Made by a program: the position numbers and the translations under genes. The notes below the pieces were generated by a model. That model saw only the letters and a list, made by a program, of their open reading frames with translations, had not been told where the DNA came from and did no database searches. From positions 1 to 37,729 of IMG/VR virus record IMGVR_UViG_3300034007_000002: a stretch of 37,729 bases of DNA, one strand, 5' to 3'. Below, in pieces: positions 7,500 through 37,729 of this stretch (the first letter of the stretch is position 1; the number at the start of each line of letters is the position of its first letter). This DNA is from a virus.

Positions 7500-8594
7500 A
7501 TGAGCAACACGCAATTTCTACAGGAGCCGGAACCGCTCGACAGGGAGCAGAACCTCGAAGGCTTCCTCAAGCTACGGCTGCAAAGCCTTGACCGAGCCGT
7601 CGCGGGTTACGTGTCCGTCTCGCTGCAAGGGCTGACCGGCAACGTAGACCTCTCGCCGCCTCAGGCGAAGTACAGGGTCGTGAAGTTGACGGGGGCGCCT
7701 TCGGGCGCCGTCAGCGTCCGCATCCCCGCCACGACCGGCGCGAACGCGGATATTATCTTCGTCAACACCTGCACCGGCTCTAGTTCCACCGTGACGCTCA
7801 AGAGCACGGGCGCGAACGCCGGCAACTCGTCGGGCGTCTCGCTCGCCACGGGTAAGACGCGGCACGTCAGGCACGACGGGGAGAGCGTCTACCCGGTGGC
7901 GCCCGAGCAGGCGACCACGCCGAGCACGCTGACCTCTAGCCTCGTCGCCTACTACAAACTTGACGAGTGGGCGGGGATGCGACTGGACTCGGTCGGCACC
8001 GGCCACCTGACCGACAACAACACCGTGACGCAGAACCCCGGCAAGCTCGGCGCGGCGGCGCAGTTCACGGCCGCAAATTCCGAATACCTGTCCGTCGCCG
8101 ACAACCCGGCGCTCTCGATGGGTAACATCGAGTTCACCGTCTGCGCGTGGGTGTACCTCGACAGCAAGACGGCGGCGCGCACCGTCTGCGCCAAGCGCGG
8201 CGTCGCCGGCGTGAGCGGCGGCGAGTTCTCACTCGTCTACGACAACTCGGCCGACCGCTTCCTCTTCTCCGTCTTCGACTCGACGACGGGTGCTAACACC
8301 GCGACGGCTAACATCTTCGGCAGCCCCTCGACCGGCACCTGGTACTTCCTCGTCGGCATGGTGGAAGGCGGGAACGTGAAGATCAGCGTCAACGGCGGGG
8401 CGTTCAACACGACCGCGAAGACCGTCACCATCCCCGACTCCGCACACCCCTTCTACATCGGCGCGCAGCAGCCGACGCCGACCTTCTTTTGGGACGGGAG
8501 GATTGATACCGTAGGTATTTGGAAGCGGGCGCTGACGGCCGCCGATCTCACGGAGCTTTACAACGGCGGCGCCGGTAAGGAGTACCCGTTCTAG
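7500..8594 (+). CDS. Tail fibre / receptor-binding protein with C-terminal LamG (concanavalin-A-like lectin) domain
   Basis: The C-terminal 220 aa read LVAYYKLDE...GHLTDNN...AAQFTAANSEYLSV...FTVCAWVYLDS...FSLVYD...WYFLVGM...ISVNG...FYIGAQ...FWDGRIDTVGIWKRALTAADLTELYNGG. This is the Laminin_G_3 pattern. It is the last gene of the tail block. Confidence 0.75.
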   Translation: MSNTQFLQEPEPLDREQNLEGFLKLRLQSLDRAVAGYVSVSLQGLTGNVDLSPPQAKYRVVKLTGAPSGAVSVRIPATTGANADIIFVNTCTGSSSTVTLKSTGANAGNSSGVSLATGKTRHVRHDGESVYPVAPEQATTPSTLTSSLVAYYKLDEWAGMRLDSVGTGHLTDNNTVTQNPGKLGAAAQFTAANSEYLSVADNPALSMGNIEFTVCAWVYLDSKTAARTVCAKRGVAGVSGGEFSLVYDNSADRFLFSVFDSTTGANTATANIFGSPSTGTWYFLVGMVEGGNVKISVNGGAFNTTAKTVTIPDSAHPFYIGAQQPTPTFFWDGRIDTVGIWKRALTAADLTELYNGGAGKEYPF

Positions 8595-8606
8595 GGGCAG
8601 CGCTCG

Positions 8607-8750
8607 GCCACGAAGGAGGTCGAGAAGGTAGACCTGCGGGTGCTGGAGAAGATTTGCCACGCCCTTGAGTGTGAGCCGGGCGAGCTACTCAGAGTGATGA
8701 GTAAGAGCCTGCGTCCTATAATACTCATTATGTTCGAGAATGAATTGTGA
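8607..8750 (+). pseudogene. Remnant of the C-terminal end of an XRE/HTH_26-type regulator, with no N-terminus and no start
   Basis: Immediately after the fibre TAG, in the same frame, the sequence reads ATKEVEKVDLRVLEKICHALECEPGELLRV. This matches the usual ...IDLDTLEKLCRALDCQPGDLLEY ending of these regulators. The helix-turn-helix part is missing. Confidence 0.5.
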
Positions 8751-8931
8751 TTCACCAACTTTTGAGAGCCTGATAACTACATCTTGTGGTCAGGTAGCGG
8801 CTGAAAAGTTCTCTAACCGACCACAGAAGTAGTTAATGGTCTGCCACAAGATATGGTGGTCATAAAGTGGCTGCGAAATCACTCCGGCGCAGCCTAGATA
8901 ACTCCAATACTCCGGTACCGGAGGTATCCCC

Positions 8932-9141
8932 ATGGGTATCCCAGCTATCCCAGCGCACCCTTGGCGCATAGGCACCCGCTGGCGCTGCGCCACCCCCTAC
9001 CGCTCCGGTACCCCATACCTGACAGGTAGCCCCTCCAGCCGGCAAGGGCTAGAGCCTCTAGAGGAGGTGGCAGAACCGAATCCGCTGTGGGGTGAGTGGC
9101 GTGCGTGGGGTAGGAAGAAAGCCGCCGCGGCGGCTCCCTAG
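8932..9141 (+). CDS. Hypothetical 69-aa Pro/Trp/Arg-rich protein (doubtful)
   Basis: GGAGG lies 7 nt upstream of the ATG. There is no recognisable motif, and the composition could also be non-coding. Confidence 0.25.
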   Translation: MGIPAIPAHPWRIGTRWRCATPYRSGTPYLTGSPSSRQGLEPLEEVAEPNPLWGEWRAWGRKKAAAAAP

Positions 9142-9283
9142 CCGTCCGGGTGGCGGCCTAGATCGTGCCATCAAGGGGGGAGAGTTTGTCGAATGAATCG
9201 AGATATTGATTGCTATGTTTAGCAGTTGGAATATAAGCTACGGCTTCTCGCGGTAAACACTCAGCAGAACCTCAGGAGAAACC

Positions 9284-9721
9284 ATGGAAGACCCAGATAA
9301 AGAACTGGAATCGTCGGCATCAACGGATCAGGGCAATCGCGCGCCTGCTGGCGGTGCGGAGGGGAGAATCGACCTTCAGTATACGCAGCCCGGCGGCCGT
9401 GTGCAGAGGACGAGCCTGACACAGTTCGCCCTCGTTAACCAATACGATGCGCATCATCGTATTTGGAGGTCGGAAGGAAGGGCTCGCGATAGACGAACTG
9501 AATATATTATGCAAGTCGCGTGTGACGTATCAAATCGAATCTTGACCGTCACGTTGAACAGTTACGTGTTTACGGCCCCTAGCACGCATATGCACGCTGT
9601 ACTTTTCAATGCAGGAAGAACCCTCGAAATAGGCTTCCTGAGAGACACCGAAGCGCACACCGATACCCCAGGGGACCAGTATCTAATCGGGAGGAATTCT
9701 CGTTTGAAGCTTTCCCTCTGA
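9284..9721 (+). CDS. Hypothetical protein (145 aa), lower-GC gene
   Basis: ORF with AGGAG 6 nt upstream of the ATG. No recognisable family. Confidence 0.55.
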   Translation: MEDPDKELESSASTDQGNRAPAGGAEGRIDLQYTQPGGRVQRTSLTQFALVNQYDAHHRIWRSEGRARDRRTEYIMQVACDVSNRILTVTLNSYVFTAPSTHMHAVLFNAGRTLEIGFLRDTEAHTDTPGDQYLIGRNSRLKLSL

Positions 9722-9832
9722 TCGCCAAGCCGCTTCCTAGAACCGCACCTCGCACGAGTGTTAGATGCTTGACGGATGAACGGCGTAGTAGGTCAGGACG
9801 CCCCCGGCACTGCCGGCCGAGTAGCTGCGCGC

Positions 9833-9874
9833 CGAAAAAAGAAGAGGGGCGAGCCCCCGAAGAGGCCCGCCCCC
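9833..9874 (-). terminator. Rho-independent terminator of the leftward SprB-like gene
   Basis: Minus-strand RNA is GGGGCGGGCC-loop-GGGCUCGCCCC, a 10-bp stem with one G-U pair, followed by UCUUCUUUUUU. Confidence 0.6.
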
Positions 9875-9920
9875 GATGGTGTCAGAGATGCCGACGACGC
9901 GTACCGTGAAGCCCTGTCCC

Positions 9921-10277
9921 TTAATAGGTGCAGGGGGCTGCAAACCCCTCAGCAGTCACCGTGCCGCTGCTATCAGTCACCTTGAAAATGACGAGCGAGG
10001 TTCCCCGATCGGTATTGCAGGGGGCGGTCATGTAGGCTGCCGTGGGGGAAGACCAGCCGCTGGTGGTCGGCACCGGAGTCCATGTAGCAGTGTAACTGCC
10101 CGTGCCCCCGCTCACCACGGCGTGACAGCTAACTTTACCCTGCCCGATGTACCAGCAATCCAGGTAGTCCACCGACAGCGCGGTTCTGGCGGCGGCGGGG
10201 CCCGGCGAGACGCTCAGCAGCGCGACGACCGAGATCATGAGGAGGACGAGGAGTCGAACCCAGCGAGTGTTGAGCAT
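9921..10277 (-). CDS. Secreted single-domain Ig/SprB-repeat-like protein (118 aa)
   Basis: Signal peptide MLNTRWVRLLVLLMISVVALLSVSPGPAAA, then C-x10-C...SGGTGSYTATW...VTDSSG...C. It is a paralog of 19948..20271 and has AGGAG upstream of the start. Confidence 0.8.
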   Translation of the reverse strand: MLNTRWVRLLVLLMISVVALLSVSPGPAAARTALSVDYLDCWYIGQGKVSCHAVVSGGTGSYTATWTPVPTTSGWSSPTAAYMTAPCNTDRGTSLVIFKVTDSSGTVTAEGFAAPCTY

Positions 10278-10344
10278 TGTGTTCTCCTATAGAGATAGAG
10301 GTAGAGGTTAGAGTGGATGCGGAGTGAGGTTAAGGCGCAGGGAA

Positions 10345-10373
10345 ATCTTGCATGACGTGTCCGGGGTTGTCAA
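10345..10373 (-). promoter_or_regulatory. Sigma70-type promoter TTGACA-17-CAAGAT for 9921..10277
   Basis: Reverse complement of 10368-10373 is TTGACA, followed by a 17-bp spacer; reverse complement of 10345-10350 is CAAGAT. Confidence 0.5.
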
Positions 10374-10416
10374 ACCGCCCGGCTCGCCTCCTTTCTCCTG
10401 TGCGGGCAGCGCCCCG

Positions 10417-10445
10417 TTGACACCACGCACCTCCGGTCGTATCGT
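10417..10445 (+). promoter_or_regulatory. Sigma70-type promoter TTGACA-17-TATCGT for the Cys-rich peptide gene
   Basis: TTGACA at 10417-10422, a 17-bp spacer, TATCGT at 10440-10445. The same hexamers and spacing occur at 19394-19422 and 20343-20371. Confidence 0.65.
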
Positions 10446-10505
10446 TCCCCCGTCACGGCCCCTCAACCTCATCGGCTTATGCTACTCACGACGAAGGAGA
10501 ACATC

Positions 10506-10700
10506 ATGCTGAAACGACTCACGCGCAAACTCATCACACTGTCCGTGCTCGTCGTCGCCCTCGCGGCCGTTTCGTCCGCTCCCGCCTCGGCTACGAGCTT
10601 TAACTGGGAATGCTATCAGGCACTCGACCCGAATACGGGGGAGTGCGTTATAATTTGCTGCGATGGTTCATGGTGCGACGGGACCCCCTGCCCAACCTAG
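10506..10700 (+). CDS. Secreted Cys-rich mini-protein (64-aa precursor, 6 Cys in about 35 mature residues)
   Basis: AAGGAG lies 6 nt upstream of ATG 10506. The product is signal peptide MLKRLTRKLITLSVLVVALAAVSSAPASA followed by TSFNWECYQALDPNTGECVIICCDGSWCDGTPCPT. Confidence 0.8.
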   Translation: MLKRLTRKLITLSVLVVALAAVSSAPASATSFNWECYQALDPNTGECVIICCDGSWCDGTPCPT

Positions 10701-10726
10701 AAGGCTTCCGCGAAAGAGCCTAGAGA

Positions 10727-10756
10727 GGGGCGGGGCTTCGGCCTTGCCCTTTTCTC
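10727..10756 (+). terminator. Rho-independent terminator
   Basis: GGGGCGGGGC-UUCG-GCCUUGCCCU, a 10-bp stem including G-U pairs with a UUCG tetraloop, followed by UUUCUC. Confidence 0.7.
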
Positions 10757-10779
10757 ATTCCCGGGCGTACCATTTACGC

Positions 10780-11004
10780 ATGAGCGAAGACCCCACCCAC
10801 AATCTGGAAGAGAAGTACGACACGAGGCCGATGCTCGAGACGATACTCAGGGAAATGCGCGCCGGGTTCGAGCGCATAGACGCCCGGCTCGACCGCATTG
10901 AAGCTCAGCTCGACCGGACGACGAGCGTCGCCCACGAAACGCGCGCCGAGGTGCGCGAACTGAAGGGGCAGCTTAAAGAACACTTCCCGTCGTTGATTAA
11001 GTAA
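10780..11004 (+). CDS. Small coiled-coil protein (74 aa)
   Basis: The internal ATG gives MSEDPTHNLEEKYDTRPMLETILREMRAGFERIDARLDRIEAQLDR..., with a heptad-like pattern. The upstream part of the tracked ORF overlaps the terminator. Confidence 0.55.
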   Translation: MSEDPTHNLEEKYDTRPMLETILREMRAGFERIDARLDRIEAQLDRTTSVAHETRAEVRELKGQLKEHFPSLIK

Positions 11005-11071
11005 GCGCCAAAAACATACCCGACTCCCTCACGTCATAAGATTACGCGAAGCCGGGTGGAGGGAAAGGCGA

Positions 11072-11326
11072 GTGAGTGTGCCTGAACCGACGCGCGACGG
11101 TGTGGAGCTGGCGCGGACCATGCTGGCAGAGGAGGGTGACCCGCTCGCCAATTACTTGGGGCTCATCGTCGGGCGGGTGATGAGTCTGAACTACGACGGG
11201 CTCGCCGCGATCTTCGACGAGCGCCGCGACGAGTTCGAGGCGCGCGGGGCGGGCGACCTGTTGCGGAAGATTCAGGCCGACGTTGACAACCTCTTCTCGG
11301 GATTCATCAACGTCGGCGGGGGGTGA
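11072..11326 (+). CDS. Hypothetical protein (84 aa)
   Basis: GTG start preceded by GGAGGGAAAGG. No recognisable family. Confidence 0.5.
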   Translation: MSVPEPTRDGVELARTMLAEEGDPLANYLGLIVGRVMSLNYDGLAAIFDERRDEFEARGAGDLLRKIQADVDNLFSGFINVGGG

Positions 11327-11354
11327 GAAGTAGCCCCCTATCTGTTTCTTCACC

Positions 11355-11380
11355 GCCCGGTCAGAAATGGCCGGGCTTTT
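11355..11380. terminator. Hairpin between convergent genes (possible bidirectional terminator)
   Basis: GCCCGG (11355-11360) pairs with CCGGGC (11371-11376) and is followed by TTTT. It lies between the + gene ending at 11326 and the - gene ending at 11438. Confidence 0.4.
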
Positions 11381-11437
11381 CTGTAGAGGGGCGGGCGCGT
11401 GCCGGTGACACGTGCCCACCCCGTTCACCGTCTCGCC

Positions 11438-11713
11438 CTACTGAGCGTCCCCTTTTCGCAGCGCCTCAAGCTCGCGCCGCATGGCCTCATACCTGAACTC
11501 GTCAACGCGCGGCAGGGACGAGACGAGCCGGTCTTCGATGGCCGACGAAAAGCTCTCGCGCTCGCCGGCTTCGATGTAGGTGAAGGCGTGGACGAGCAGC
11601 AGGAGCCGCGCGACCTGTTCGGCGTTCCCGGCGCTCGTGATGCTCTCCGCGAGGTCTGCCGCCTCTTCAAACGTGAGCGGGTTGCTCCCGCGCCAGTCGG
11701 GTTGCTTCGGCAT
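11438..11713 (-). CDS. Hypothetical protein (91 aa), last gene of the leftward operon
   Basis: Its ATG shares one base with the TGA of the upstream gene (TGATG). The product starts MPKQPDWRGSNPLTFEEAADL. Confidence 0.6.
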   Translation of the reverse strand: MPKQPDWRGSNPLTFEEAADLAESITSAGNAEQVARLLLLVHAFTYIEAGERESFSSAIEDRLVSSLPRVDEFRYEAMRRELEALRKGDAQ

Positions 11714-12189
11714 CACGCGCCCCCTTTCTCGGCGCGCGCGGCCCGCAACGCGCGCCGCCTGTCCGTCCCGGTCAACGCTTCGACGCGCGCAGCCGAAGGG
11801 ACGAAGGGCGGGGCGCTGAGAACGTCGCACGCCACCGGGAACAGCGCCTTGACCGCCGCCGGGTATTCGATGAAGTGCCGGAGCGCGACGCCGCAGACCT
11901 CTAGGGCGTAGGCGCTAACCGCGTCGTAAACCTCCGGCGGCGTCGCGGGGTCACTCAGCACGGCGGCGATGTTGTGCGCGACGCGGGCGACCTCGCCGCG
12001 CGCCACGTCTCCGCGCGGCCTCCCGCCTCCCATACCTATCTCACTCAGTGTCGCCAGTTCGGCGGCCGTGTATTCCGTCAGCCGATACCCGCCCGCGACC
12101 AACGTGCGGCGGCGGGCGAAGTCGTCTGCCCACTCGCGCGCGGCGGCCTTGCCCTTCGCGCTGCGCCTCTGTACTTTCTTCGTAGTCAT
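11713..12189 (-). CDS. Hypothetical protein (158 aa) with basic N-terminal tag MTTKKVQRRSAKGK
   Basis: The internal ATG at 12189 reproduces the N-terminus of the neighbouring gene. The longer tracked ORF start looks like out-of-context extension. Confidence 0.6.
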   Translation of the reverse strand: MTTKKVQRRSAKGKAAAREWADDFARRRTLVAGGYRLTEYTAAELATLSEIGMGGGRPRGDVARGEVARVAHNIAAVLSDPATPPEVYDAVSAYALEVCGVALRHFIEYPAAVKALFPVACDVLSAPPFVPSAARVEALTGTDRRRALRAARAEKGGA

Positions 12190-12973: not shown

Positions 12974-13002
12974 AGTCTAACGCGAGAGAAAGGGAAAGTC
13001 AA
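12974..13002 (-). promoter_or_regulatory. Leftward promoter TTGACT-17-TAGACT
   Basis: The minus strand reads TTGACT ttccctttctctcgcgt TAGACT. The -10 is embedded in CGCGTTAGACTT. Confidence 0.55.
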
Positions 13003-13016
13003 ACTAACAATTACTC

Positions 13017-13046
13017 TTGCGTAAACTTTTCTTTGGCGTTAGACTT
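13017..13046 (+). promoter_or_regulatory. Rightward promoter TTGCGT-17-TAGACT, 8 nt upstream of ATG 13054 (leaderless mRNA predicted)
   Basis: TTGCGT aaacttttctttggcgt TAGACT tcccagcc ATG. The -10 is embedded in GGCGTTAGACTT. No SD can fit in the 8-nt gap. Confidence 0.55.
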
Positions 13047-13053
13047 CCCAGCC

Positions 13054-13272
13054 ATGAGTGCAACACTTACGACCAAAGAAGCAGCCGAGCGCCTCGGAGT
13101 TTCGCCAGCGCGCGTGCGTCAACTTGTACTTTCGGGCGAACTGCCGGCTGAAAAGTTCGGCCGTGACCTGATGATTAAAGAAGGTGATTTGAAGTTGGTC
13201 GCGGATCGCCCGATAGGTCGGCCGCCGAAGGCGCAGACCAAGAACACAGCAAAGAAAGGCAGTAAGAAATGA
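13054..13272 (+). CDS. Excisionase/MerR-like HTH DNA-binding protein (72 aa)
   Basis: LTTKEAAERLGVSPARVRQLVLSGELPAEKFGRDLMIKEGDL fits the HTH_17 / excisionase-family pattern. The C-terminal tail is AKKGSKK. Confidence 0.75.
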   Translation: MSATLTTKEAAERLGVSPARVRQLVLSGELPAEKFGRDLMIKEGDLKLVADRPIGRPPKAQTKNTAKKGSKK

Positions 13273-13514
13273 GCAGACAGCCACTTTCACCACCAGCAGA
13301 GCTAGACCTCGAAGACATAGCGGAAGGAATCACCGCTGTGCTTGATGGCCAAGACGCAATACTGAAGATGCTATGGTCGATACGAAGTGGCGTTAATGCG
13401 TCTTTCTTGGATGACTCCGATTTTCAGGTCATTAATATGCGGCGCAACTTCGCGCGGAACAATTTGAGAGTCAAGTCCGCTGCCGCAAAGGCAAAGAAAG
13501 GCGGGAAGAAGTAA
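13269..13514 (+). CDS. Hypothetical small acidic protein (81 aa), C-terminal tail AKKGGKK
   Basis: ATGA overlap with the upstream gene. No recognisable family. Confidence 0.6.
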   Translation: MSRQPLSPPAELDLEDIAEGITAVLDGQDAILKMLWSIRSGVNASFLDDSDFQVINMRRNFARNNLRVKSAAAKAKKGGKK

Positions 13515-13531
13515 GTTACGACTCCTGTGAA

Positions 13532-13885
13532 GTGAATAGAATGAAAAAGTCAGAACAAAAGTTGCTACGTAAATCCCTGAACAAGATTCTTCCTAGGGAT
13601 AGAGTTTCGCGGGAGGAACTAATTGGTAAAACTCCGCAGGAGCGGACAGATATACTTCTAGACCGCCTTGTGACTCCCGAGCAACAAGAGCGCGCAGGGC
13701 GCTATATGAACCGGACATTAGTGAGAATCTCTCTGCGAGAGGCACCCTCAGACGATGTGCCTCCCATAGATAAGATCAAGCTCTACGCCCGCTCCGGCTA
13801 CCACCTGCACCACATCGGCACGGATGAGGACTTCGAGCAAGTGTGGGAAGAGGCATTCCCTGAAGAGAAAGGCGGGAAGAAGTGA
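13532..13885 (+). CDS. Hypothetical protein (117 aa; alternative ATG at 13541), C-terminal tail EKGGKK
   Basis: ORF in series with its neighbours. No recognisable family. Confidence 0.55.
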   Translation: MNRMKKSEQKLLRKSLNKILPRDRVSREELIGKTPQERTDILLDRLVTPEQQERAGRYMNRTLVRISLREAPSDDVPPIDKIKLYARSGYHLHHIGTDEDFEQVWEEAFPEEKGGKK

Positions 13886-13953
13886 GCGGTGAGGAGATTA
13901 AATTGGCTGATGTGAGATACAAGGCGGCGCGCGAGCTGCGATAGGAAAGACCA

Positions 13954-14334
13954 TTGTTCGAGTCTGAAGAAGAGAAGAGAGTCAAATTTCTCTCCCGCAT
14001 TACCGATGAGGCGTATGAGCTTGCGATTCGGCTCGGCGTTTCAGAGGCTGCGGAGGGGGGAAGCGAGAGCGACCTGTACGCCCTCGAAAAGCTGTACCGC
14101 ATCCGGCTCATGGCTGTGCGGCGGATGATACGTCGCTGGAATGCTTCCACCGAAGCCGATATAGAGTTTAGGAAGACCGACGAGCAGAAGGCCCGGGACG
14201 CGCGCCACGCAGAACTGACCGAAATGTTCATGCGCGAGAAAGGGATGTCGCGGGTCGATGCGATGGTCGCGGCGTCGGGCGCCATGTACATGGAGGTCTA
14301 CAGCAAAGACAAGGACGACGATCTCGCTAACTAA
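13954..14334 (+). CDS. Hypothetical protein (126 aa, TTG start uncertain)
   Basis: ORF in the same operon-like series. No recognisable family. Confidence 0.45.
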   Translation: MFESEEEKRVKFLSRITDEAYELAIRLGVSEAAEGGSESDLYALEKLYRIRLMAVRRMIRRWNASTEADIEFRKTDEQKARDARHAELTEMFMREKGMSRVDAMVAASGAMYMEVYSKDKDDDLAN

Positions 14335-14373
14335 CGTCCCCGAGTACGACGGGCGACGAGGAGGGCAGTTACA

Positions 14374-14562
14374 GTGGAACTAGAGCTTGGAGAGTATGCG
14401 CGGTGGATTCTCGTCGAAAGCCCCGATGACTTCGACTGGGAAGAAGTGAGCTATGACGGGCACGGGTACGTCATCCTGAAGGACAGAAGCAGGCTCGACG
14501 TGAAACCGGATTTGTATCGGGCCGAGCGAGAGGCATGGAACGCAGAGCGGCATAGTAGATAG
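14374..14562 (+). CDS. Hypothetical small acidic protein (62 aa)
   Basis: GTG start preceded by GAGGAGG. No recognisable family. Confidence 0.5.
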   Translation: MELELGEYARWILVESPDDFDWEEVSYDGHGYVILKDRSRLDVKPDLYRAEREAWNAERHSR

Positions 14563-14609
14563 CAGTCTTAATGTCACTAACGTCATACTCGGCGAAGGTT
14601 TAGAGGGTT

Positions 14610-15308
14610 ATGGACGAAATAGCAACTCAGAAGTTCGTAAAGGAAGCAGTCTCACAATTCGTAGAGCTATGGGAAGATATTCCTGAAGCCCAACTAATCA
14701 AGCGCGACTCCAATCACTTCTTAATTGTTAAACCAACCTCTCTAATAAAAGAACTAAATGATGCCATACCATACGCAACGATACACATAAACTTAGAAGA
14801 GTTGTCCAGGCATTTTTTAAAGTCCGGGTCTATCGGGGAGCCAAGTATAGATAAAAGGTACATTGCTAAATTACAGATTCACGACATGCTCCGTACGGCT
14901 GAACTTGCCCCTAGCGTCTTCTCCTATTTCCTTAATTTTCTAGAGATATTGACGCTCCGAGAAGGTTTGGAGTCCCTATTAGGGTCTTTATCTGAAGACT
15001 CAAAGACAAAACTTGCAGAAGTTGCTGAACGCCTATTTCAAGTCATGTTGCAGCACTATAAGCTTCTGAAGGAGACAAAGCCCGGAGCCTCAAGTGTTAT
15101 TACTGATTTTGAAGCGCTTGAGGTCTTCCGCAAATCTAGGAATAGAGTGCTTTCCAAACGCCAATTAGCAAAAGAGATGCAAACAACTCCGGCTACCGTG
15201 CGTAGTTGGCTTCACAGAAAGGGATTCAAATCATCTGAAGAATTGCTGGATGATCTTTTAAAGCGTATTCACACTCTAATAGACAATGCACGGGAGGGTG
15301 AGAAGTAA
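14610..15308 (+). CDS. Low-GC paralog 1: unknown N-terminal domain plus C-terminal HTH
   Basis: Aligns by eye with 15380..16147. The N-termini share MDE..Q...K..V..F...W.D.PEAQ..KRD..HFLIVK and HINLEE. The C-termini share KPGASSVI...LAKE..T.PATVR.WL..KG..S..EL.DD. Confidence 0.75.
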   Translation: MDEIATQKFVKEAVSQFVELWEDIPEAQLIKRDSNHFLIVKPTSLIKELNDAIPYATIHINLEELSRHFLKSGSIGEPSIDKRYIAKLQIHDMLRTAELAPSVFSYFLNFLEILTLREGLESLLGSLSEDSKTKLAEVAERLFQVMLQHYKLLKETKPGASSVITDFEALEVFRKSRNRVLSKRQLAKEMQTTPATVRSWLHRKGFKSSEELLDDLLKRIHTLIDNAREGEK

Positions 15309-15379
15309 GTCGCTTTAGTTAGTGTTAGCCGCAGCCCGGTATGACCAAGAGCACAGTGTTAAGTAGAAGCTGAAAAGTT

Positions 15380-16147
15380 ATGGACGAAGAGGCAATCCAG
15401 AGGCTTGCGAAGAACGTAGTAGTGACGTTTCTAGTGGATTGGAAAGACACGCCCGAGGCGCAGGTGGTTAAGCGAGACGGGGCACATTTCTTGATCGTGA
15501 AGCTAGACTCACCGTTCTCTGCTGCGTTACATATCAATCTGGAAGAGAGATGCGAGCATGAGCTAAAACATCTCTACGAAGTAGTCGGGACGGAAGAAAG
15601 TGCGGACGATACTACTGACCTTATTTATAGTCTCGTCTATCGCCTACCACAGGAACTAACTTACATAACTAGAAGCGTGCCCGGTCTCTTCATCTACAGT
15701 CTTCATCTGCTGGACTTGTTAGCGTACCGTGAGCGCCTACGATCTGTATCAGAGTCTTTAACTCAAGGCAGACGGGAAAGGACTGAACTAGTAGCCAGAA
15801 TATTAACTCAAGGGTTATTACTGGCGCATGGCTTAACAGAGAGAAAGAAGCCGGGAGCATCAAGTGTCATCGATGACGACAAAGTACTTGATATTTTTCT
15901 TAGACTCCAAGGTGACGTGCCTTCAATCCGTAGGTTAGCAAAAGAACTAGAAACCGAACCTGCCACCGTGCGTAACTGGCTTCGCAAGAAGGGCTACAAC
16001 TCGCCTAAAGAATTAGCAGACGACGTAGTAAATTCAAATTCCAACTCAAAAGTAGATTTCTTTCTAAAAGTCAAAAGGTTACTTACTAAAAGTCAAAAGG
16101 GAACAACGGAAAGAAAGCAAAGGGGGAGGGTAGAAATTAAGCCCTAA
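15380..16147 (+). CDS. Low-GC paralog 2: unknown N-terminal domain plus C-terminal HTH
   Basis: Shares the motifs listed for 14610..15308. Its last codons lie inside the left arm of the 33-bp inverted repeat. Confidence 0.75.
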   Translation: MDEEAIQRLAKNVVVTFLVDWKDTPEAQVVKRDGAHFLIVKLDSPFSAALHINLEERCEHELKHLYEVVGTEESADDTTDLIYSLVYRLPQELTYITRSVPGLFIYSLHLLDLLAYRERLRSVSESLTQGRRERTELVARILTQGLLLAHGLTERKKPGASSVIDDDKVLDIFLRLQGDVPSIRRLAKELETEPATVRNWLRKKGYNSPKELADDVVNSNSNSKVDFFLKVKRLLTKSQKGTTERKQRGRVEIKP

Positions 16148-16211
16148 TCCTACCCGGGTAGAATTAACCTCGAATTATTACCTGGGTAGGATTAGGGCTT
16201 AATTTCTACCC
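16128..16211. repeat. 33-bp inverted repeat (one mismatch, G-U compatible) around an 18-nt spacer
   Basis: The left arm GGGTAGAAATTAAGCCCTAATCCTACCCGGGTA (16128-16160) pairs with TACCTGGGTAGGATTAGGGCTTAATTTCTACCC (16179-16211). Confidence 0.9.
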
Positions 16212-18903: not shown

Positions 18904-18942
18904 CCAAAAAAAAGAAAGAAGCGGCGAGGGGTGGCTCGCCGC
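18904..18942 (-). terminator. Rho-independent terminator of the leftward Cys-rich peptide gene
   Basis: Minus-strand stem GCGGCGAG-loop-CUCGCCGC followed by UUCUUUCUUUUUUUU. Confidence 0.7.
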
Positions 18943-18960
18943 TCTCTCGGGGTCTGGATT

Positions 18961-19149
18961 CTACGGTGCTACCTGACTGGCGCAGGGGCCGCCCGTCGTG
19001 TCGTGAACGCACCAGTAGTAACAGGTCTTATCGGCACCGCAATAGTCGGCGCAACATTTGCTGGCCACCATAGCTGGACCGTCGTCGTCAAAGGGAACAA
19101 CGGACAGTAATGCGACGAGCATCGTGAGCAAGACGAGTCTCTTTTTCAT
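18961..19149 (-). CDS. Secreted Cys-rich mini-protein (62-aa precursor, 6 Cys)
   Basis: AAGGAG SD; signal peptide MKKRLVLLTMLVALLSVVPF, then ...KCCADYCGADKTCYYWCVHDTTGGPC.... Confidence 0.75.
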   Translation of the reverse strand: MKKRLVLLTMLVALLSVVPFDDDGPAMVASKCCADYCGADKTCYYWCVHDTTGGPCASQVAP

Positions 19150-19230: not shown

Positions 19231-19259
19231 AGCTTAATTGTGGTCGCCGCCCCTGTCAA
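19231..19259 (-). promoter_or_regulatory. Promoter TTGACA-17-TAAGCT for 18961..19149
   Basis: Reverse complement of 19254-19259 is TTGACA, followed by a 17-bp spacer; reverse complement of 19231-19236 is TAAGCT. Confidence 0.55.
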
Positions 19260-19393
19260 TCTTTTACGCGAAGGACGATCGGCGTGAGGGTTCTGCCTAG
19301 CGAAACAATTTCCTGCCCAACAGAACGCCGGTCAGCTTGTCCCGTTAGGCAAAGCCGGTCGAGCCGTATCGCCGCCATACAACAGGCTGCCCG

Positions 19394-19422
19394 TTGACAG
19401 CCCTCCCCTCCCGGCGTATCGT
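19394..19422 (+). promoter_or_regulatory. Promoter TTGACA-17-TATCGT for 19497..19754
   Basis: TTGACA at 19394-19399 and TATCGT at 19417-19422. The leader resembles the one at 10417-10505. Confidence 0.65.
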
Positions 19423-19496
19423 TACCGCGTTCCTCGGTTGCGTTACGGTCCCTCAACCTCAACGGCTCCAGGCCACTCACGACGAAGGAGAACACC

Positions 19497-19754
19497 ATGC
19501 TGAAACATCCCGCGGGGCGACTCGCCCGCCGCCTCTCCGCCCTGTTCATGCTCGCCGCCGCCCTCACGACGCTCCTGTCAAATCCCGTTAGCCACCAAGC
19601 CGAGGGTTGGGCGGGCACTCCCGACTGGCCGCCGTGCTGTGGGTATACGTGTTCTCTGTCAATAGACGATGAGACGCAACAGTGCGTTATGACTTGCTGC
19701 CGGTGGCCGTCAGGCTGCATGACGGGCCCTTGCAGTCCAGAAGTGGAACCGTAG
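19497..19754 (+). CDS. Secreted Cys-rich mini-protein (85-aa precursor, 8 Cys), paralog of 10506..10700
   Basis: AAGGAG SD and a hydrophobic signal region. The tail CCGYTCSLSIDDETQQCVMTCCRWPSGCMTGPCSP aligns with ECVIICCDGSWCDGTPCP of the paralog. Confidence 0.8.
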   Translation: MLKHPAGRLARRLSALFMLAAALTTLLSNPVSHQAEGWAGTPDWPPCCGYTCSLSIDDETQQCVMTCCRWPSGCMTGPCSPEVEP

Positions 19755-19889
19755 GGCCCGATGACCCGGCGGCCGCGCTCCACGTGCCGATGCTGGGCGC
19801 GGCCCGACATCACAGAGCCCCACCTCTCATGTCACCGGTGACACCACAGACCTCTGGTCCGTAGTGTCAGGGGCCGGATAGAAGTAAAT

Positions 19890-19925
19890 GGGGGGGGCGG
19901 TACCTTCTGCGGTACCGCCCCCCCC
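19890..19925. terminator. Perfect 15-bp hairpin between convergent genes (likely bidirectional terminator)
   Basis: GGGGGGGGCGGTACC-ttctgc-GGTACCGCCCCCCCC. The flanking U-tracts are weak. Confidence 0.55.
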
Positions 19926-19947: not shown

Positions 19948-20271
19948 CTACTGGCAGTAGAACAGGTCGGAGTAGTAGCCGGTCTCGCCGTTAGCGTCCG
20001 TCACGGTCACGGAGATGGTCCTGCTGATGCCGGAACATCCGATGCGCAGTGACTGCCCGCTCCCAGTAATCGGCGACGGCCCCCACGCATAGGTGTAAGG
20101 GGCCGTGCCCCCGTACACCTCGGTCGTACAGCGCAGTTGATCGTAGGCCAAGCCTATACAGTCTATACTGACGATTGGGCCTGTCCGGGCCTCGACAGGT
20201 TTGACCGGGGCGGCCAGCGGCGCGAGGGCGACGAACGCGAGGGCGAGCGCCAGAATCAGTTTATAACGCAT
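19948..20271 (-). CDS. Secreted single-domain Ig/SprB-repeat-like protein (107 aa), paralog of 9921..10277
   Basis: Signal peptide MRYKLILALALAFVALAPLAAP, then C-x10-C...YGGTAPYTYAW...VTDANGETG...C. Confidence 0.8.
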   Translation of the reverse strand: MRYKLILALALAFVALAPLAAPVKPVEARTGPIVSIDCIGLAYDQLRCTTEVYGGTAPYTYAWGPSPITGSGQSLRIGCSGISRTISVTVTDANGETGYYSDLFYCQ

Positions 20272-20342
20272 TGTGAGTCTCCTTGGTGAAGCGGACGTTA
20301 AACGAATGAGGTTGAGGGCCTCGCTTTAAAGGGAACGCGGGA

Positions 20343-20371
20343 ACGATACGCCCGGCGGTGGCGGGTGTCAA
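20343..20371 (-). promoter_or_regulatory. Promoter TTGACA-17-TATCGT for 19948..20271
   Basis: Reverse complement of 20366-20371 is TTGACA, followed by a 17-bp spacer; reverse complement of 20343-20348 is TATCGT. Confidence 0.65.
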
Positions 20372-20471: not shown

Positions 20472-20702
20472 ATGACCAGAACTTTAACGGCGACGATCTG
20501 GCGCGAGACGGACGGCTACGTCTCCCTCTGCCCCGAACTCGACATCGCCTCACAAGGGGATACGGTCGAGGAGGCGCGGGCGAACCTCCAGGAGGCGGTG
20601 GACCTCTTCTTCGAGGCGGCGGACGCCTCCGAGGTGGCCGAGCGTCTGAAGCCCGAGATGTACGTCACTTCGCTGGAGGTCAACGTTGGGGAGGCTGCGT
20701 AG
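20472..20702 (+). CDS. hicB: HicB-family antitoxin
   Basis: LTATIWRETDGYVSLCPELDIASQGDTVEEARANLQEAVDLFFE fits the HicB/UPF0150 N-terminal pattern. It overlaps the downstream toxin gene. Confidence 0.85.
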   Translation: MTRTLTATIWRETDGYVSLCPELDIASQGDTVEEARANLQEAVDLFFEAADASEVAERLKPEMYVTSLEVNVGEAA

Positions 20703-20910
20703 GCTCTCGGGGCGCGAGGTCTGCGCCATCCTCGCCCGCCACGGCTTCGCCGAGGCCCGCCAGCGCGGGAGTCACGTGGTCATGCAGAGGAGGACGGACC
20801 AGGGGACGGTGACCGTGCCGGTACCCCTCCACAACGAGCTGCGCACCGGCACGCTCCACTCCATCATCAGGCAGTCGGGGGTTCCGCGGGCGGAGTTCGA
20901 GACGGAGTAA
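20686..20910 (+). CDS. hicA: HicA-family mRNA interferase toxin (TTG start)
   Basis: LSGREVCAILARHGFAEARQRGSHVVMQR....VTVPVPLHNELRTGTLHSIIRQSGV fits the HicA/YcfA pattern. Confidence 0.85.
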   Translation: MGRLRRLSGREVCAILARHGFAEARQRGSHVVMQRRTDQGTVTVPVPLHNELRTGTLHSIIRQSGVPRAEFETE

Positions 20911-35964: not shown

Positions 35965-37729
35965 ATGGCACGCACCCAACAAGACATTCTCGTCAAGATT
36001 AAAGTCCTTCTCGAAGGACTCGGGAATGTGCGTGCGCTCGCCGGCCACGTTAAAGAGTTGAACGGCGGGAGCGGGCAGACGGCGGCGCTGGCCGGAAACA
36101 TTGACCGGCTCGCGGGAGCCGTCGATCGACTCGCCAACGCGTCGGGGAAGACCGCGAAGTCCAGCGGCGGCTTCGTGCGCTTCCTCGTCGGCGTCTCGGC
36201 GGTCGTCTCTACCCTCGCCACCATCCCCCAAGCCTTCCAGGGCATCAACAAGCTGCTCGACCTCGCCGAGCGTCTGGGGGGCGGTCTCGGCGGCCTCTTC
36301 GGGAAGCTCACAGGGCTATTCCAGCGCGCGGGGGCGGCAGCGTCGAGCGCCCTGTCGTCGGTCGGCTCTTCGCTCTCAGGACTCGTCAGCGGGGCGGGGG
36401 CGGGCGCTGGCGGGGCGCTGGCTGGCATAGGCGGGGCGCTGGCCGCCCTCGCCCCCTTCGCGCTCGCTGCGGCCGCCGCGCTCGTCGTCGTCGTCGGGGT
36501 GGTGGCGGCGGCGGCGGCCGGCTTCCTCTCGCTCGCCGCTTCGGTCGGGGTCGGTGCCGTCGCGCTTACCTTCATCGCGCAGCGCGGGCTTGAGGTTCAA
36601 CGCTCGCTTGAGCAGGTGCGGCTCGGCATCGCCGCAATCATCACCTCTCTGGCCGACGTGAAGGTGGACGGCCTGCCCGTCGAGGGCGCGGAGAAGTTCC
36701 GCGCCGCGATGGCCGTCTCCGCCGACCAGTTAAAGAAGCTCCAGGTGGACGCCGTCAACACGGTGGCGACCTTCGAGCAGATTGCCCCCGCGTTTCAGAC
36801 CGCCATCGGGCCGGGGCTGGCCGCCAAGCTCACGCTCGACGAAATACGGGGCATCACGGTCAAGGTCGTGCAGGCGGCCTCCGCCATCGGCCTGCCGCTC
36901 AATCAGGTCAGTCAGGAAGTCCGCGCCATCCTCGAAGGCACCATCAACGAGGACGCGCGCCTCGCCAAAGTGCTCGGCATCTCTAACGAGATGGTCAAGT
37001 CGTGGAAGGCGCAGGGGAAGCTCGCCGAAGAGTTGAACAAGCGCCTCGCGGGCTTCGCGGTCGCGGGCGTCGAGGCCGCCGAGACGATGGACGGCCTGAC
37101 CTCGAATCTTGAAGAGGCTTTGAACGTCTTCTCGGCCGAGGCGACGGGGCGAGCCTTCGACGCTCTCAAAGGCGAGTTCAAGCGGCTCCTCCCGCAGCTC
37201 TTCGACTTCAAGAGCGCAGGGATAGCCGCGCAGTTTAAGGGACTCACGACGCTGGCCGACGAGGTGCTGGTCAGGGTCGTGCGCATCGGGGGCGGGATAG
37301 CGCAGAGCATCGTCTCGGGTCTGCGGCAGGCTTCGGCGTTCGTCCAACAGAACCGCAGCCAGATCGACGCCGTGCTGAATCAGATAGAGCTAATGGTGCG
37401 CCTGCTGCTGCGCGCCGTGGGCGTCGTCGCGCAGATCGCCACCTCTTCCGCGACGTGGGGCAGCACGCTCTCGGCGGTGCAGACCATCCTCGGGTTAATT
37501 AACGTCATCCTCGCGCTCGTCCTCGACCAGTTCCGGCAGATGGCCCCTTACCTTCAGCTCGCCATCCTCGCCGCAAACCTGCTCATCGCTTCACAGCCCG
37601 CCCTCGCCGCCGCCGCGCGGGTCGGCGCCGGCGGGGCGAGCGGGCAGGAGCCGACCGGACTCAGTTCCGTGCGGCTCAACCCGGACGGGAGCCTCAAGGG
37701 TGGGATTAGCGTCGCGGGCGGTGCGCGAG
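35965..37729 (+). CDS. Tail tape measure protein, N-terminal portion (continues at 128..2022 through the overlap; about 1219 aa in total)
   Basis: ATG 35965 is the only start after the in-frame TAG at 35896. The frame stays open to the window end and matches the phase of 1..2022. It contains the hydrophobic segment ALAPFALAAAAALVVVVGVVAAAAAGFL and long helical repeats. Confidence 0.9.
   Translation, partial: MARTQQDILVKIKVLLEGLGNVRALAGHVKELNGGSGQTAALAGNIDRLAGAVDRLANASGKTAKSSGGFVRFLVGVSAVVSTLATIPQAFQGINKLLDLAERLGGGLGGLFGKLTGLFQRAGAAASSALSSVGSSLSGLVSGAGAGAGGALAGIGGALAALAPFALAAAAALVVVVGVVAAAAAGFLSLAASVGVGAVALTFIAQRGLEVQRSLEQVRLGIAAIITSLADVKVDGLPVEGAEKFRAAMAVSADQLKKLQVDAVNTVATFEQIAPAFQTAIGPGLAAKLTLDEIRGITVKVVQAASAIGLPLNQVSQEVRAILEGTINEDARLAKVLGISNEMVKSWKAQGKLAEELNKRLAGFAVAGVEAAETMDGLTSNLEEALNVFSAEATGRAFDALKGEFKRLLPQLFDFKSAGIAAQFKGLTTLADEVLVRVVRIGGGIAQSIVSGLRQASAFVQQNRSQIDAVLNQIELMVRLLLRAVGVVAQIATSSATWGSTLSAVQTILGLINVILALVLDQFRQMAPYLQLAILAANLLIASQPALAAAARVGAGGASGQEPTGLSSVRLNPDGSLKGGISVAGGAR
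37603..37729. repeat. Second copy of the 127-bp terminal overlap
   Basis: Identical to 1-127 by direct comparison. Confidence 0.95.

Follow-up and report, generated by a model that had tools for sequence, protein, structure and literature searches.

Why would a tailed phage carry, at two places in its genome, genes for the same two kinds of small secreted protein? The question is raised by IMG/VR virus record IMGVR_UViG_3300034007_000002, whose positions 1 to 37,729 were analysed over their full length and are referred to here as the window. An initial annotation had described a divergent gene pair near 10 kb (locus 1), which encodes a secreted immunoglobulin-like (Ig-like) protein (Ig1) and a secreted cysteine-rich peptide (pep1), and had noted relatives of both (Ig2 and pep2) at a second locus near 20 kb (locus 2). 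Our analysis points to both loci as accessory-gene sites of the moron type, at which secreted-protein cassettes diversify by replacement of the segment encoding the mature protein. We assign this reading of the architecture and evolutionary mode a probability of about 65%.

A promoter-leader cassette shared among secreted-protein genes

The window contains three copies of the promoter TTGACA-N17-TATCGT, where 0.06 would be expected, and these stand exactly upstream of pep1, pep2 and Ig2 and nowhere else. At all three window sites it is followed by CCCTCAACCTCA and then by AAGGAGA-N5-ATG. The full cassette also precedes the peptide genes of L003 and L016, which are syntenic loci in host chromosomes, and a related but variant upstream region is found at L001, L018 and L020. 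In the related phage L021, the cassette leader lies upstream of four different secreted-protein genes. We also observed in this phage that at least two of three extra Cys-rich ORFs (open reading frames), as well as its Ig and peptide genes, stand behind a TCAACCTCA...AAGGAGA leader. An Rfam search of 8.5-21 kb returned no family for the conserved leader and only sub-threshold microRNA look-alikes on a palindrome at 16.13-16.21 kb.

The promoter of Ig1 is of a type that differs from the cassette of pep1, pep2 and Ig2. It was read from the sequence, was not reported by the promoter scanner, and is conserved in the homologous locus L010. At the sequence level, each gene has a promoter and a terminator of its own, as expected of morons.

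Abrupt divergence at the signal/mature junction

The initial annotation had proposed a comparison of divergence between the signal peptides and the mature regions. When homologs from other genomes are compared, the mature parts are much more diverged. Across eight peptide loci, the signal-coding part retains 76% nucleotide identity, with proportions of synonymous and nonsynonymous differences (pS and pN) of 0.39 and 0.17, respectively, whereas the mature part retains 51% (pS 0.69, pN 0.44). Ig1 and its L010 homolog share ~86% identity in the 110 nt upstream and are nearly identical over 31 signal codons (pS 0.00, pN 0.02), whereas past the cleavage site pS rises to 0.57 and pN to 0.30. The same pattern is seen between Ig2 and the L021 gene at the orthologous position, with ~87% upstream identity and a signal pS of 0.23, against a mature pS of 0.55 and pN of 0.49. 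Between genomes, 85-100% identity is retained over promoter, leader and signal, and the break in identity is abrupt at the signal/mature junction. Because synonymous divergence jumps at one point, recombination between segments of different age would account for the pattern. This indicates that the mature-coding segment has probably been replaced by recombination behind a conserved 5′ module, rather than altered by faster point substitution. We infer that the promoter-leader-signal module serves as the homologous anchor for such recombination.

It had also been suggested that the module was duplicated or diversifying. Diversification stands, in the form of a conserved 5′ module with a replaced mature part, but recent duplication does not, as the signals of the two window loci are as diverged as their mature parts (pS 0.32-0.54 against 0.53-0.60). 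With signals only 37-48% identical in amino acids, the window loci are best read as old paralogs with no recent internal duplication. The dissimilarity of the Ig1 and Ig2 promoters also counts against a recent duplication of the loci.

Gene organization of the two loci

The coordinates of the features are collected in Table 1. At locus 1, both ORFs named in the initial annotation are upheld as real genes, and the back-to-back promoters and separate terminators assigned to them were likewise recovered. Each product has a paralog at 19.5-20.3 kb, as proposed, and the protein alignments are significant: Ig1 and Ig2 match by BLASTP at E = 5e-7 (37% identity over 51 aa), and pep1 and pep2 at E = 9e-8. 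With composition correction off, the latter improves to E = 1.3e-8 and the alignment covers the signal and the whole Cys framework. At the level of sequence, both paralogies are thus weak but significant. The mechanically called pep1 ORF begins at 10479; the ATG at 10506 was taken as the start because of the family alignment and the AAGGAG in front of it. The Cys residues of pep1 are spaced by gaps of 10, 3, 0, 4 and 4.

Table 1. Positions of the genes and their putative control signals at loci 1 and 2 of the window.
Feature	Position	Strand	Description
Ig1 terminator	9833-9874	-	Intrinsic; 13-bp G+C hairpin at 9845-9874, then U-run CUUCUUUUUU; -28.7 kcal/mol, z = -3.0
Ig1	9921-10277	-	118-aa precursor; Sec-type signal of ~31 aa ending AAA/R; stand-alone SprB/PKD-type Ig-like domain, 4 Cys
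Ig1 promoter	10345-10373	-	-35 box TTGACA, 10373 to 10368; -10 box weak (CAAGAT, or TGc-AAGATT)
pep1 promoter	10417-10445	+	TTGACA (10417-10422)-N17-TATCGT
pep1 leader	10446-10505	+	Conserved, G-poor; CCCTCAACCTCA at 10460-10471; Shine-Dalgarno sequence AAGGAG at 10494-10499
pep1	10506-10700	+	64-aa precursor; signal-coding part 10506-10592 (MLKRLTRKLITLSVLVVALAAVSSAPASA); mature part 35 aa, 6 Cys as C-C-CC-C-C, net charge -5
pep1 terminator-like hairpin	10722-10755	+	15 pairs; -33.5 kcal/mol, z = -2.2; U-run partly within stem
pep3 terminator	18919-18944	-	z = -5.7
pep3	18961-19149	-	62-aa small secreted Cys-rich ORF, 6 Cys; no clear pep-family member
pep2 promoter	19394-19422	+	TTGACA-N17-TATCGT, then leader CCCTCAACCTCA at 19450-19461
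pep2	19497-19754	+	85-aa precursor, 8 Cys; family and Cys sub-framework of pep1
pep2/Ig2 shared hairpin	19890-19925	.	15-bp G+C; z = -3.4 (+), -6.9 (-)
Ig2	19948-20271	-	107-aa precursor, paralog of Ig1
Ig2 promoter-leader cassette	20278-20371	-	pep1/pep2 type; TTGACA-N17-TATCGT from 20371 to 20343, CCCTCAACCTCA from 20318 to 20307; scored as inverted repeats I1, I2 and I4

Two small genes lie downstream of pep1. The 84-aa gene at 11072-11326 has a 60%-identical counterpart that flanks the peptide cassette in phage contig L022, and the small coiled-coil gene at 10780-11004 has a counterpart there that is alike in kind only, with no BLAST match. These counterparts around the L022 peptide cassette identify locus 1 as a conserved insertion neighbourhood.

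Locus 2 had been taken for a second divergent pair, which requires correction. pep2 and Ig2 are convergent around the hairpin they share, which is likely a bidirectional terminator. The gene that diverges from pep2 is instead pep3, which has its own TTGACA promoter near 19250. pep3 was considered as a member of the peptide family, but family searches could not place it; it shows a weak, sub-threshold match to Myticin-prepro. A 185-aa ORF at 19256-19813 (-) overlaps pep2 in antisense, and on a sister contig the automated annotation called this antisense ORF (184 aa) in place of pep2. We regard pep2 as the real gene because P0093 is a near-identical called homolog of it and because of its promoter cassette, and the antisense call is probably a mis-annotation typical of high-GC DNA. 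Directly beside locus 2, a HicB/HicA toxin-antitoxin pair is found at 20472-20910, with 95-98% amino acid identity in phage L021.

Adjacency of Ig-like and peptide genes

All fetched loci were scanned with an Ig-like and a peptide profile, with flanks of up to 10 kb. An Ig-like gene adjoins a peptide gene at four of ~11 distinct peptide loci. The pair is divergent at window locus 1 (229 nt apart), convergent at window locus 2 (194 nt), and tandem in L021 (159 nt) and L005 (~96 nt), where the neighbour is a distant member of the peptide family. As adjacency occurs in all three orientations, the linkage would reflect selection rather than operon structure. No Ig-like gene was found in the flanks of ~7 distinct peptide loci, namely L001, the syntenic L003/L016, L018, L020 (with two copies), phage L022, L023 and L025/26. 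The Ig genes of L010 and L011 lie on short contigs without a peptide gene. As far as these sequences allow, the association is real but facultative. The initial annotation had taken the double occurrence in the window as a sign that the two families work together; the adjacency does recur in L021 and L005, but the peptide loci without an Ig-like gene make the pairing optional. The Ig-like gene of L005 is itself split over two frames (8151-8369 and 8038-8526), as a frameshifted pseudogene or through an assembly error.

Two protein families

A single-sequence search returned 16 relatives of the peptide, and a profile search 96 clusters, all of them unnamed and without Pfam domains. Members are 51-82 aa long, apart from four of 94-141 aa that are called ORFs with N-terminal extensions. 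The N-terminus, MLKRLTRKLITLSVLV.ALAAVSS.PAS, is near-invariant and is built like a Sec signal, with a charged stretch, a hydrophobic stretch and an AxA site; AlphaFold2 models it as a single hydrophobic helix. Counted from the first Cys, the mature part is ~27 aa long. Its Cys framework is C-C-CC-C-C, that of conotoxin framework VI/VII, in 65 of the 96 clusters and C-C-CC-CC-C-C in 19 of the 96. The sub-framework of pep1 and pep2, C-x10-C-x3-CC-x4/5-C-x4-C, recurs with an 8-residue first loop in the chromosomal members P0084 and P0090-92. The AlphaFold2 model, based on a 91-sequence alignment, comprises the signal helix and three short strands (35-40, 47-53 and 56-61), with a pLDDT (predicted local distance difference test score) of 76 overall and 74-87 in the mature part.

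Sequence searches of Pfam, NCBIfam and the Protein Data Bank (PDB) gave nothing significant for the peptides or for the mature parts alone. A profile of the mature part found nothing better in the PDB than a non-significant hydrophobin (E = 3.4) and no relevant Pfam match even at E <= 10. Matches to SitA6 (pep1), a fimbrial chaperone (P0007) and Myticin-prepro (pep3) fell below the cutoff and are attributable to the signal peptide or to Cys composition. A hevein/chitin-binding likeness, to which the motifs 'CPSGxxCC' and 'CCSGYW' had pointed, received no support in profile searches and was dropped. An exact-DNA scan with the signal-coding 26-mer yielded one already-known locus in the metagenome collection and none in the viral collection. 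In open-access text, we found no description of such a peptide family, nor of a knottin family in bacteria or phages; papers on a 'cysteine-rich repeat' concern eukaryotic markers of horizontal gene transfer and are unrelated.

The mature parts are anionic in 98% of members and cationic in none, and this uniformly negative charge makes classical cationic, pore-forming or membrane-active antimicrobial peptides unlikely. Class II bacteriocins combine a double-glycine or Sec leader with a cationic mature peptide and an adjacent immunity gene; the peptides show, besides their negative charge, a Sec-type signal, no constant adjacent small membrane protein, and an Ig neighbour in only four loci.

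The Ig-like family is much smaller, with three clusters in a word-indexed search of 5.8 billion proteins. The initial annotation's Ig-like assignment proved right. A profile built from Ig1, Ig2, P0002 and P0003 matched 5641 representatives at E <= 1e-3, the top matches being giant multi-repeat proteins, thousands of residues long, in which 10-60 stretches are matched that Pfam assigns to SprB, PKD and PKD_4. The direct Pfam SprB match of Ig2 is sub-threshold (13.9 bits against a cutoff of 28). AlphaFold2 predicts a 7-strand beta-sandwich (pLDDT 79.6), for which Foldseek returned Ig-like, PKD and phage decoration domains, the best at E = 3.9e-3 and none at E <= 0.001. A scan of the viral collection with the Ig profile found no relative. 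From the profile, Pfam, AlphaFold2 and Foldseek results together, we conclude that Ig1 and Ig2 are single, signal-bearing copies of a domain that is usually repeated in tandem in adhesins.

Hot spots, mobility and chromosomal neighbourhoods

Phage L021 is syntenic with the window from 27.3 down to 20.5 kb. Its stretch from HicB to the replication genes contains an Ig gene, a peptide gene, a thioredoxin/DsbE-like gene and three further Cys-rich ORFs. Compared with the window at this position, the Ig gene differs in its mature part, and the peptide belongs to another subfamily and lies in the other orientation. In phage contig L022, the peptide cassette adjoins the homolog of window gene 11072-11326. 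Relative to the window, these two phages display the presence, absence and replacement at one position that characterize morons. The thioredoxin-like gene of L021 (7285-7812) is membrane-anchored, of the thioredoxin/DsbE/ResA type, and immediately follows the peptide gene; the three small Cys-rich secreted ORFs are located at 7932-9477.

Peptide genes are also found next to DDE transposases, integrases and insertion sequence (IS) elements, which marks them as mobile. At the one syntenic chromosomal locus seen in L003 (6408-10855) and L016 (6623-11411), peptide genes of different subfamilies occur in a block with an XRE-type helix-turn-helix (HTH) gene and a CheY-like response regulator, and the block adjoins a gene for a 1030-aa activator of the TPR-sigma54 (tetratricopeptide repeat) type and a DDE transposase. 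In L026 (5898-10517), a peptide gene lies ~5 kb from ABC-toxin (Tc-toxin-like) genes and beside an integrase, a link that may be coincidental.

The phage genome and its host

The window belongs to a tailed phage, as judged from PHROG and Pfam matches to the small and large terminase, portal, head-tail joining protein, capsid/protease fusion, tape measure, tail proteins like those of gene transfer agents, and a Laminin_G tail fibre. Positions 1-127 are identical to 37603-37729. From this 127-nt terminal overlap, we read the window as a complete, circular phage genome of 37,602 bp, with the tape-measure gene spanning the window ends. At least four samples yielded assemblies of the same phage, one of them a contig of 37,743 nt. 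The deposited phages include no close relative: by blastn, positions 9000-12000 matched nothing in the phage collection, and the phage tail protein has only distant relatives (<34% identity).

The host lineage is most likely Blastocatellia, among the soil bacteria of the Acidobacteriota, because 26 nt of signal-coding DNA are matched exactly in one Pyrinomonadaceae and one Blastocatellia metagenome-assembled genome, both from the Acidobacteriota.

Two other features of the genome were observed. Positions 13000-16200 form a low-GC island (46-51%, against 62-66% elsewhere). Within it lie genes 14610-15308 and 15380-16147, which are paralogous, show repeats spaced by 770 nt and match nothing in Pfam or PHROG; the second of these genes has a 63%-identical homolog in phage L021. 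Between gene 15380-16147 and a Prim-Pol gene, positions 16128-16211 form a near-perfect inverted repeat whose 33-nt arms are 97% complementary and enclose an 18-nt loop; it may serve as an origin of replication or as a strong terminator.

Proposed mechanism and alternative explanations

We propose that locus 1 and locus 2 (18.9-20.4 kb) are accessory-gene ('moron') hot spots of the phage, at which each gene would form a transcription unit of its own. Such a unit would begin with a strong promoter of the sigma70-like kind and a G-poor leader bearing a strong Shine-Dalgarno sequence, would encode a Sec-type signal followed by a small, disulfide-rich mature domain, and would close with a hairpin terminator. 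Its expression would presumably not depend on the phage programme. Sec would export the products, signal peptidase I would cleave them after AxA, and they would be oxidized in the periplasm; the thioredoxin-like neighbour in L021 fits the last of these steps. The peptide product would be acidic and knottin-like, with a mass of ~3.5 kDa and a putative C-C-CC-C-C disulfide knot, and the other product would be a stand-alone SprB/PKD-type Ig-like beta-sandwich of ~9 kDa. Both kinds of gene would be drawn from an accessory pool of the host lineage, in which the promoter-leader-signal module also fronts chromosomal and IS- or integrase-linked copies. Recombination would then swap the mature-coding segment behind the conserved 5′ module, with the Ig-like gene as a frequent, facultative neighbour of the peptide gene. 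In this proposal, the sequences show that the genes are real, belong to their families, share the cassette, diverge as mosaics, are mobile and recur side by side; export, cleavage, the disulfide knot and expression apart from the phage programme are predictions.

Several considerations weigh against this proposal. The low synonymous divergence of the signals could be explained in part by selection at the mRNA 5′-end rather than by recombination, and the sample is small, comprising 6 distinct Ig-like genes and ~11 distinct loci for the peptides. The scanned window ORFs yielded neither an integrase nor a repressor, and the lysogeny in which morons would matter is hypothetical for this phage. The role suggested for the products is read from their architecture. 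That role, which we offer tentatively and hold to be possible but less probable than its alternatives combined, is that of extracellular or periplasmic recognition and blocking factors in antagonism with competitors or other phages, for example through receptor masking. What points to it is a disulfide scaffold that stays fixed while its loops vary, together with the Ig-like binder, the high pN/pS and the carriage by phages beside tail genes.

Other explanations have been considered for the variable mature parts and for the pairing. A diversity-generating retroelement or similar targeted hypermutation could potentially explain why, in these short phage genes for secreted proteins, only the 3′ part varies. 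We give this hardly any credence, since reverse transcriptase was not detected in the scanned window ORFs (a subset of all ORFs), the window has no template/variable repeat pair, and the variants differ by indels, Cys-framework changes and synonymous sites of all base types. Only slightly less remote is the idea that the peptides are precursors of ribosomally synthesized and post-translationally modified peptides (RiPPs), with the conserved N-terminus as leader for a modifying enzyme and the variable Cys-rich part as core peptide. A conserved N-terminus with a hypervariable C-terminus is also the hallmark of RiPP precursor families, as PMC12426817 states in general terms. In the present peptides, however, the N-terminus is organized like a Sec signal, with n-, h- and c-regions and an AxA site, and its model is a single hydrophobic helix. 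Radical-SAM, LanM, YcaO and peptidase-transporter genes are absent from all 12 neighbourhoods, and NCBIfam gave no RiPP-precursor match.

The regulators beside the L003/L016 peptide gene (the XRE-type HTH, the CheY-like response regulator and the 1030-aa activator), the different peptide subfamilies at this same locus, and the sigma54 activators and response regulator near L018 would suit a secreted, pherotype-like and strain-specific signal that neighbouring regulators sense, with phage copies that mimic or jam host signalling. This explanation is improbable. L001, L020, L023 and L025/26 lack a regulator neighbourhood, the promoter is sigma70-like and not sigma54-like, no receptor kinase or peptide importer is seen beside the genes, and the block travels with a DDE transposase, such that its synteny may be hitch-hiking. 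A stronger rival, although one we still consider unlikely, is an obligate two-component module. The Ig-like protein and the peptide would then be binding partners, for example a toxin with its periplasmic immunity or carrier protein or a ligand with its receptor, and would co-diversify as cognate pairs. Wherever an Ig-like gene has 1.5 kb or more of flanking sequence, a member of the peptide family is encoded near it, at the distances given above, and the adjacency outlasts re-arrangement into divergent, convergent and tandem pairs. Both partners also combine conserved signals with swapped mature parts, and the promoter-leader cassette of Ig2 is that of the peptides. The ~7 peptide loci without an Ig-like gene, phage L022 included, speak against an obligate module, as does the rarity of the Ig family (three clusters against 96 for the peptides). 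Moreover, three of the four adjacencies come from two related phages, and both genes may just pile up in the same moron hot spots. Moron-type cassettes with replaceable mature segments thus remain our preferred reading.

Comparison with known systems and significance

By architecture, the closest analogues are the conotoxin and mussel cysteine-rich peptide (CRP) superfamilies; by fold hypothesis the knottins; by domain the SprB/PKD proteins; and by genomic logic the morons. The conotoxin and mussel CRP superfamilies (e.g., MgCRP-I; PMC4558851) combine a conserved pre-region with a hypervariable six-Cys mature peptide. The peptides resemble these in their short secreted precursors with a conserved signal and a hypervariable mature part on a six-Cys framework, in their many paralogs or alleles, and in the reduced synonymous change of the signal-coding part. 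Unlike them, the phage and bacterial genes have no introns, no evident pro-region, anionic products and no detectable sequence similarity to the animal families, and their diversification looks recombinational, with an abrupt break at the junction. The Cys spacing and the ~27 aa from the first Cys to the end recall knottins, and pep1 has six Cys in the order C-C-CC-C-C within ~25-40 residues, as knottins do. The three short predicted beta-strands may correspond to the small triple-stranded antiparallel beta-sheet of knottins. Knottin connectivity (I-IV, II-V and III-VI, with the third bond threaded through the ring) is only putative for the peptides, neither Pfam nor the PDB gave a sequence match to any described knottin family, and membership among knottins is not established.

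Ig1 and Ig2 share with SprB-repeat and PKD-type domains (PF13573, PF18911 and PF00801) the motifs GGTxxYTxxW and TVTDxxG, thousands of profile matches and a predicted beta-sandwich. They differ from the SprB/PKD adhesins in being single domains in precursors of 107-118 aa with their own Sec signal, with 4 Cys in Ig1, rather than 10-60 tandem repeats.

Phage morons or lysogenic-conversion genes include lom and bor of lambda and the receptor-blocking llp of T5 and cor of phi80. The cassettes described here resemble them as autonomous promoter-gene-terminator units that lie where functional modules meet (following the tail genes and next to the replication module), as units that vary between related phages, and in encoding envelope or secreted proteins. 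Their product families are new, in contrast to those of known morons, and their promoter-leader-signal module is common to host chromosomal copies. In Mycoplasma Vlp/Vsp systems, a conserved 5′ untranslated region and signal peptide precede a variable part, and recombination within the constant region exchanges the variants. The cassettes share with these systems and with polymorphic toxin loci the conserved 5′ region followed by a variable part, yet they lack repeats, a phase-variable promoter or a large N-terminal delivery domain, and no immunity gene is assigned.

In our assessment, the findings add two new protein families and place a known evolutionary pattern in a new setting. More speculatively, and in a reading that we consider unlikely, the venom-peptide superfamilies may have a bacterial counterpart in Blastocatellia and their phages. 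In such a system, a mobile expression-export module would act as recombination anchor, knottin-like 'warheads' and single Ig-like binders would be exchanged behind it, and cognate pairs would provide polymorphic recognition (toxin/immunity or receptor-mask/anti-mask) in bacterium-bacterium or phage-phage conflict.

If the proposed architecture and evolutionary mode hold, they would provide a prokaryotic and phage case of a constant signal joined to a hypervariable disulfide scaffold, a combination so far known mainly from animal venoms and invertebrate immune peptides. They would also define two protein families that lack annotation, one with ~96 clusters and the other with a handful, and would supply a compact, portable expression and secretion cassette from the Acidobacteria, a phylum that is hard to study. 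The peptides would constitute a natural library of small, probably very stable disulfide-rich molecules whose targets, be they competitors, phages or predators, could be screened for. For phage biology, the window would then present two hot spots at which host-derived secreted effectors are exchanged.

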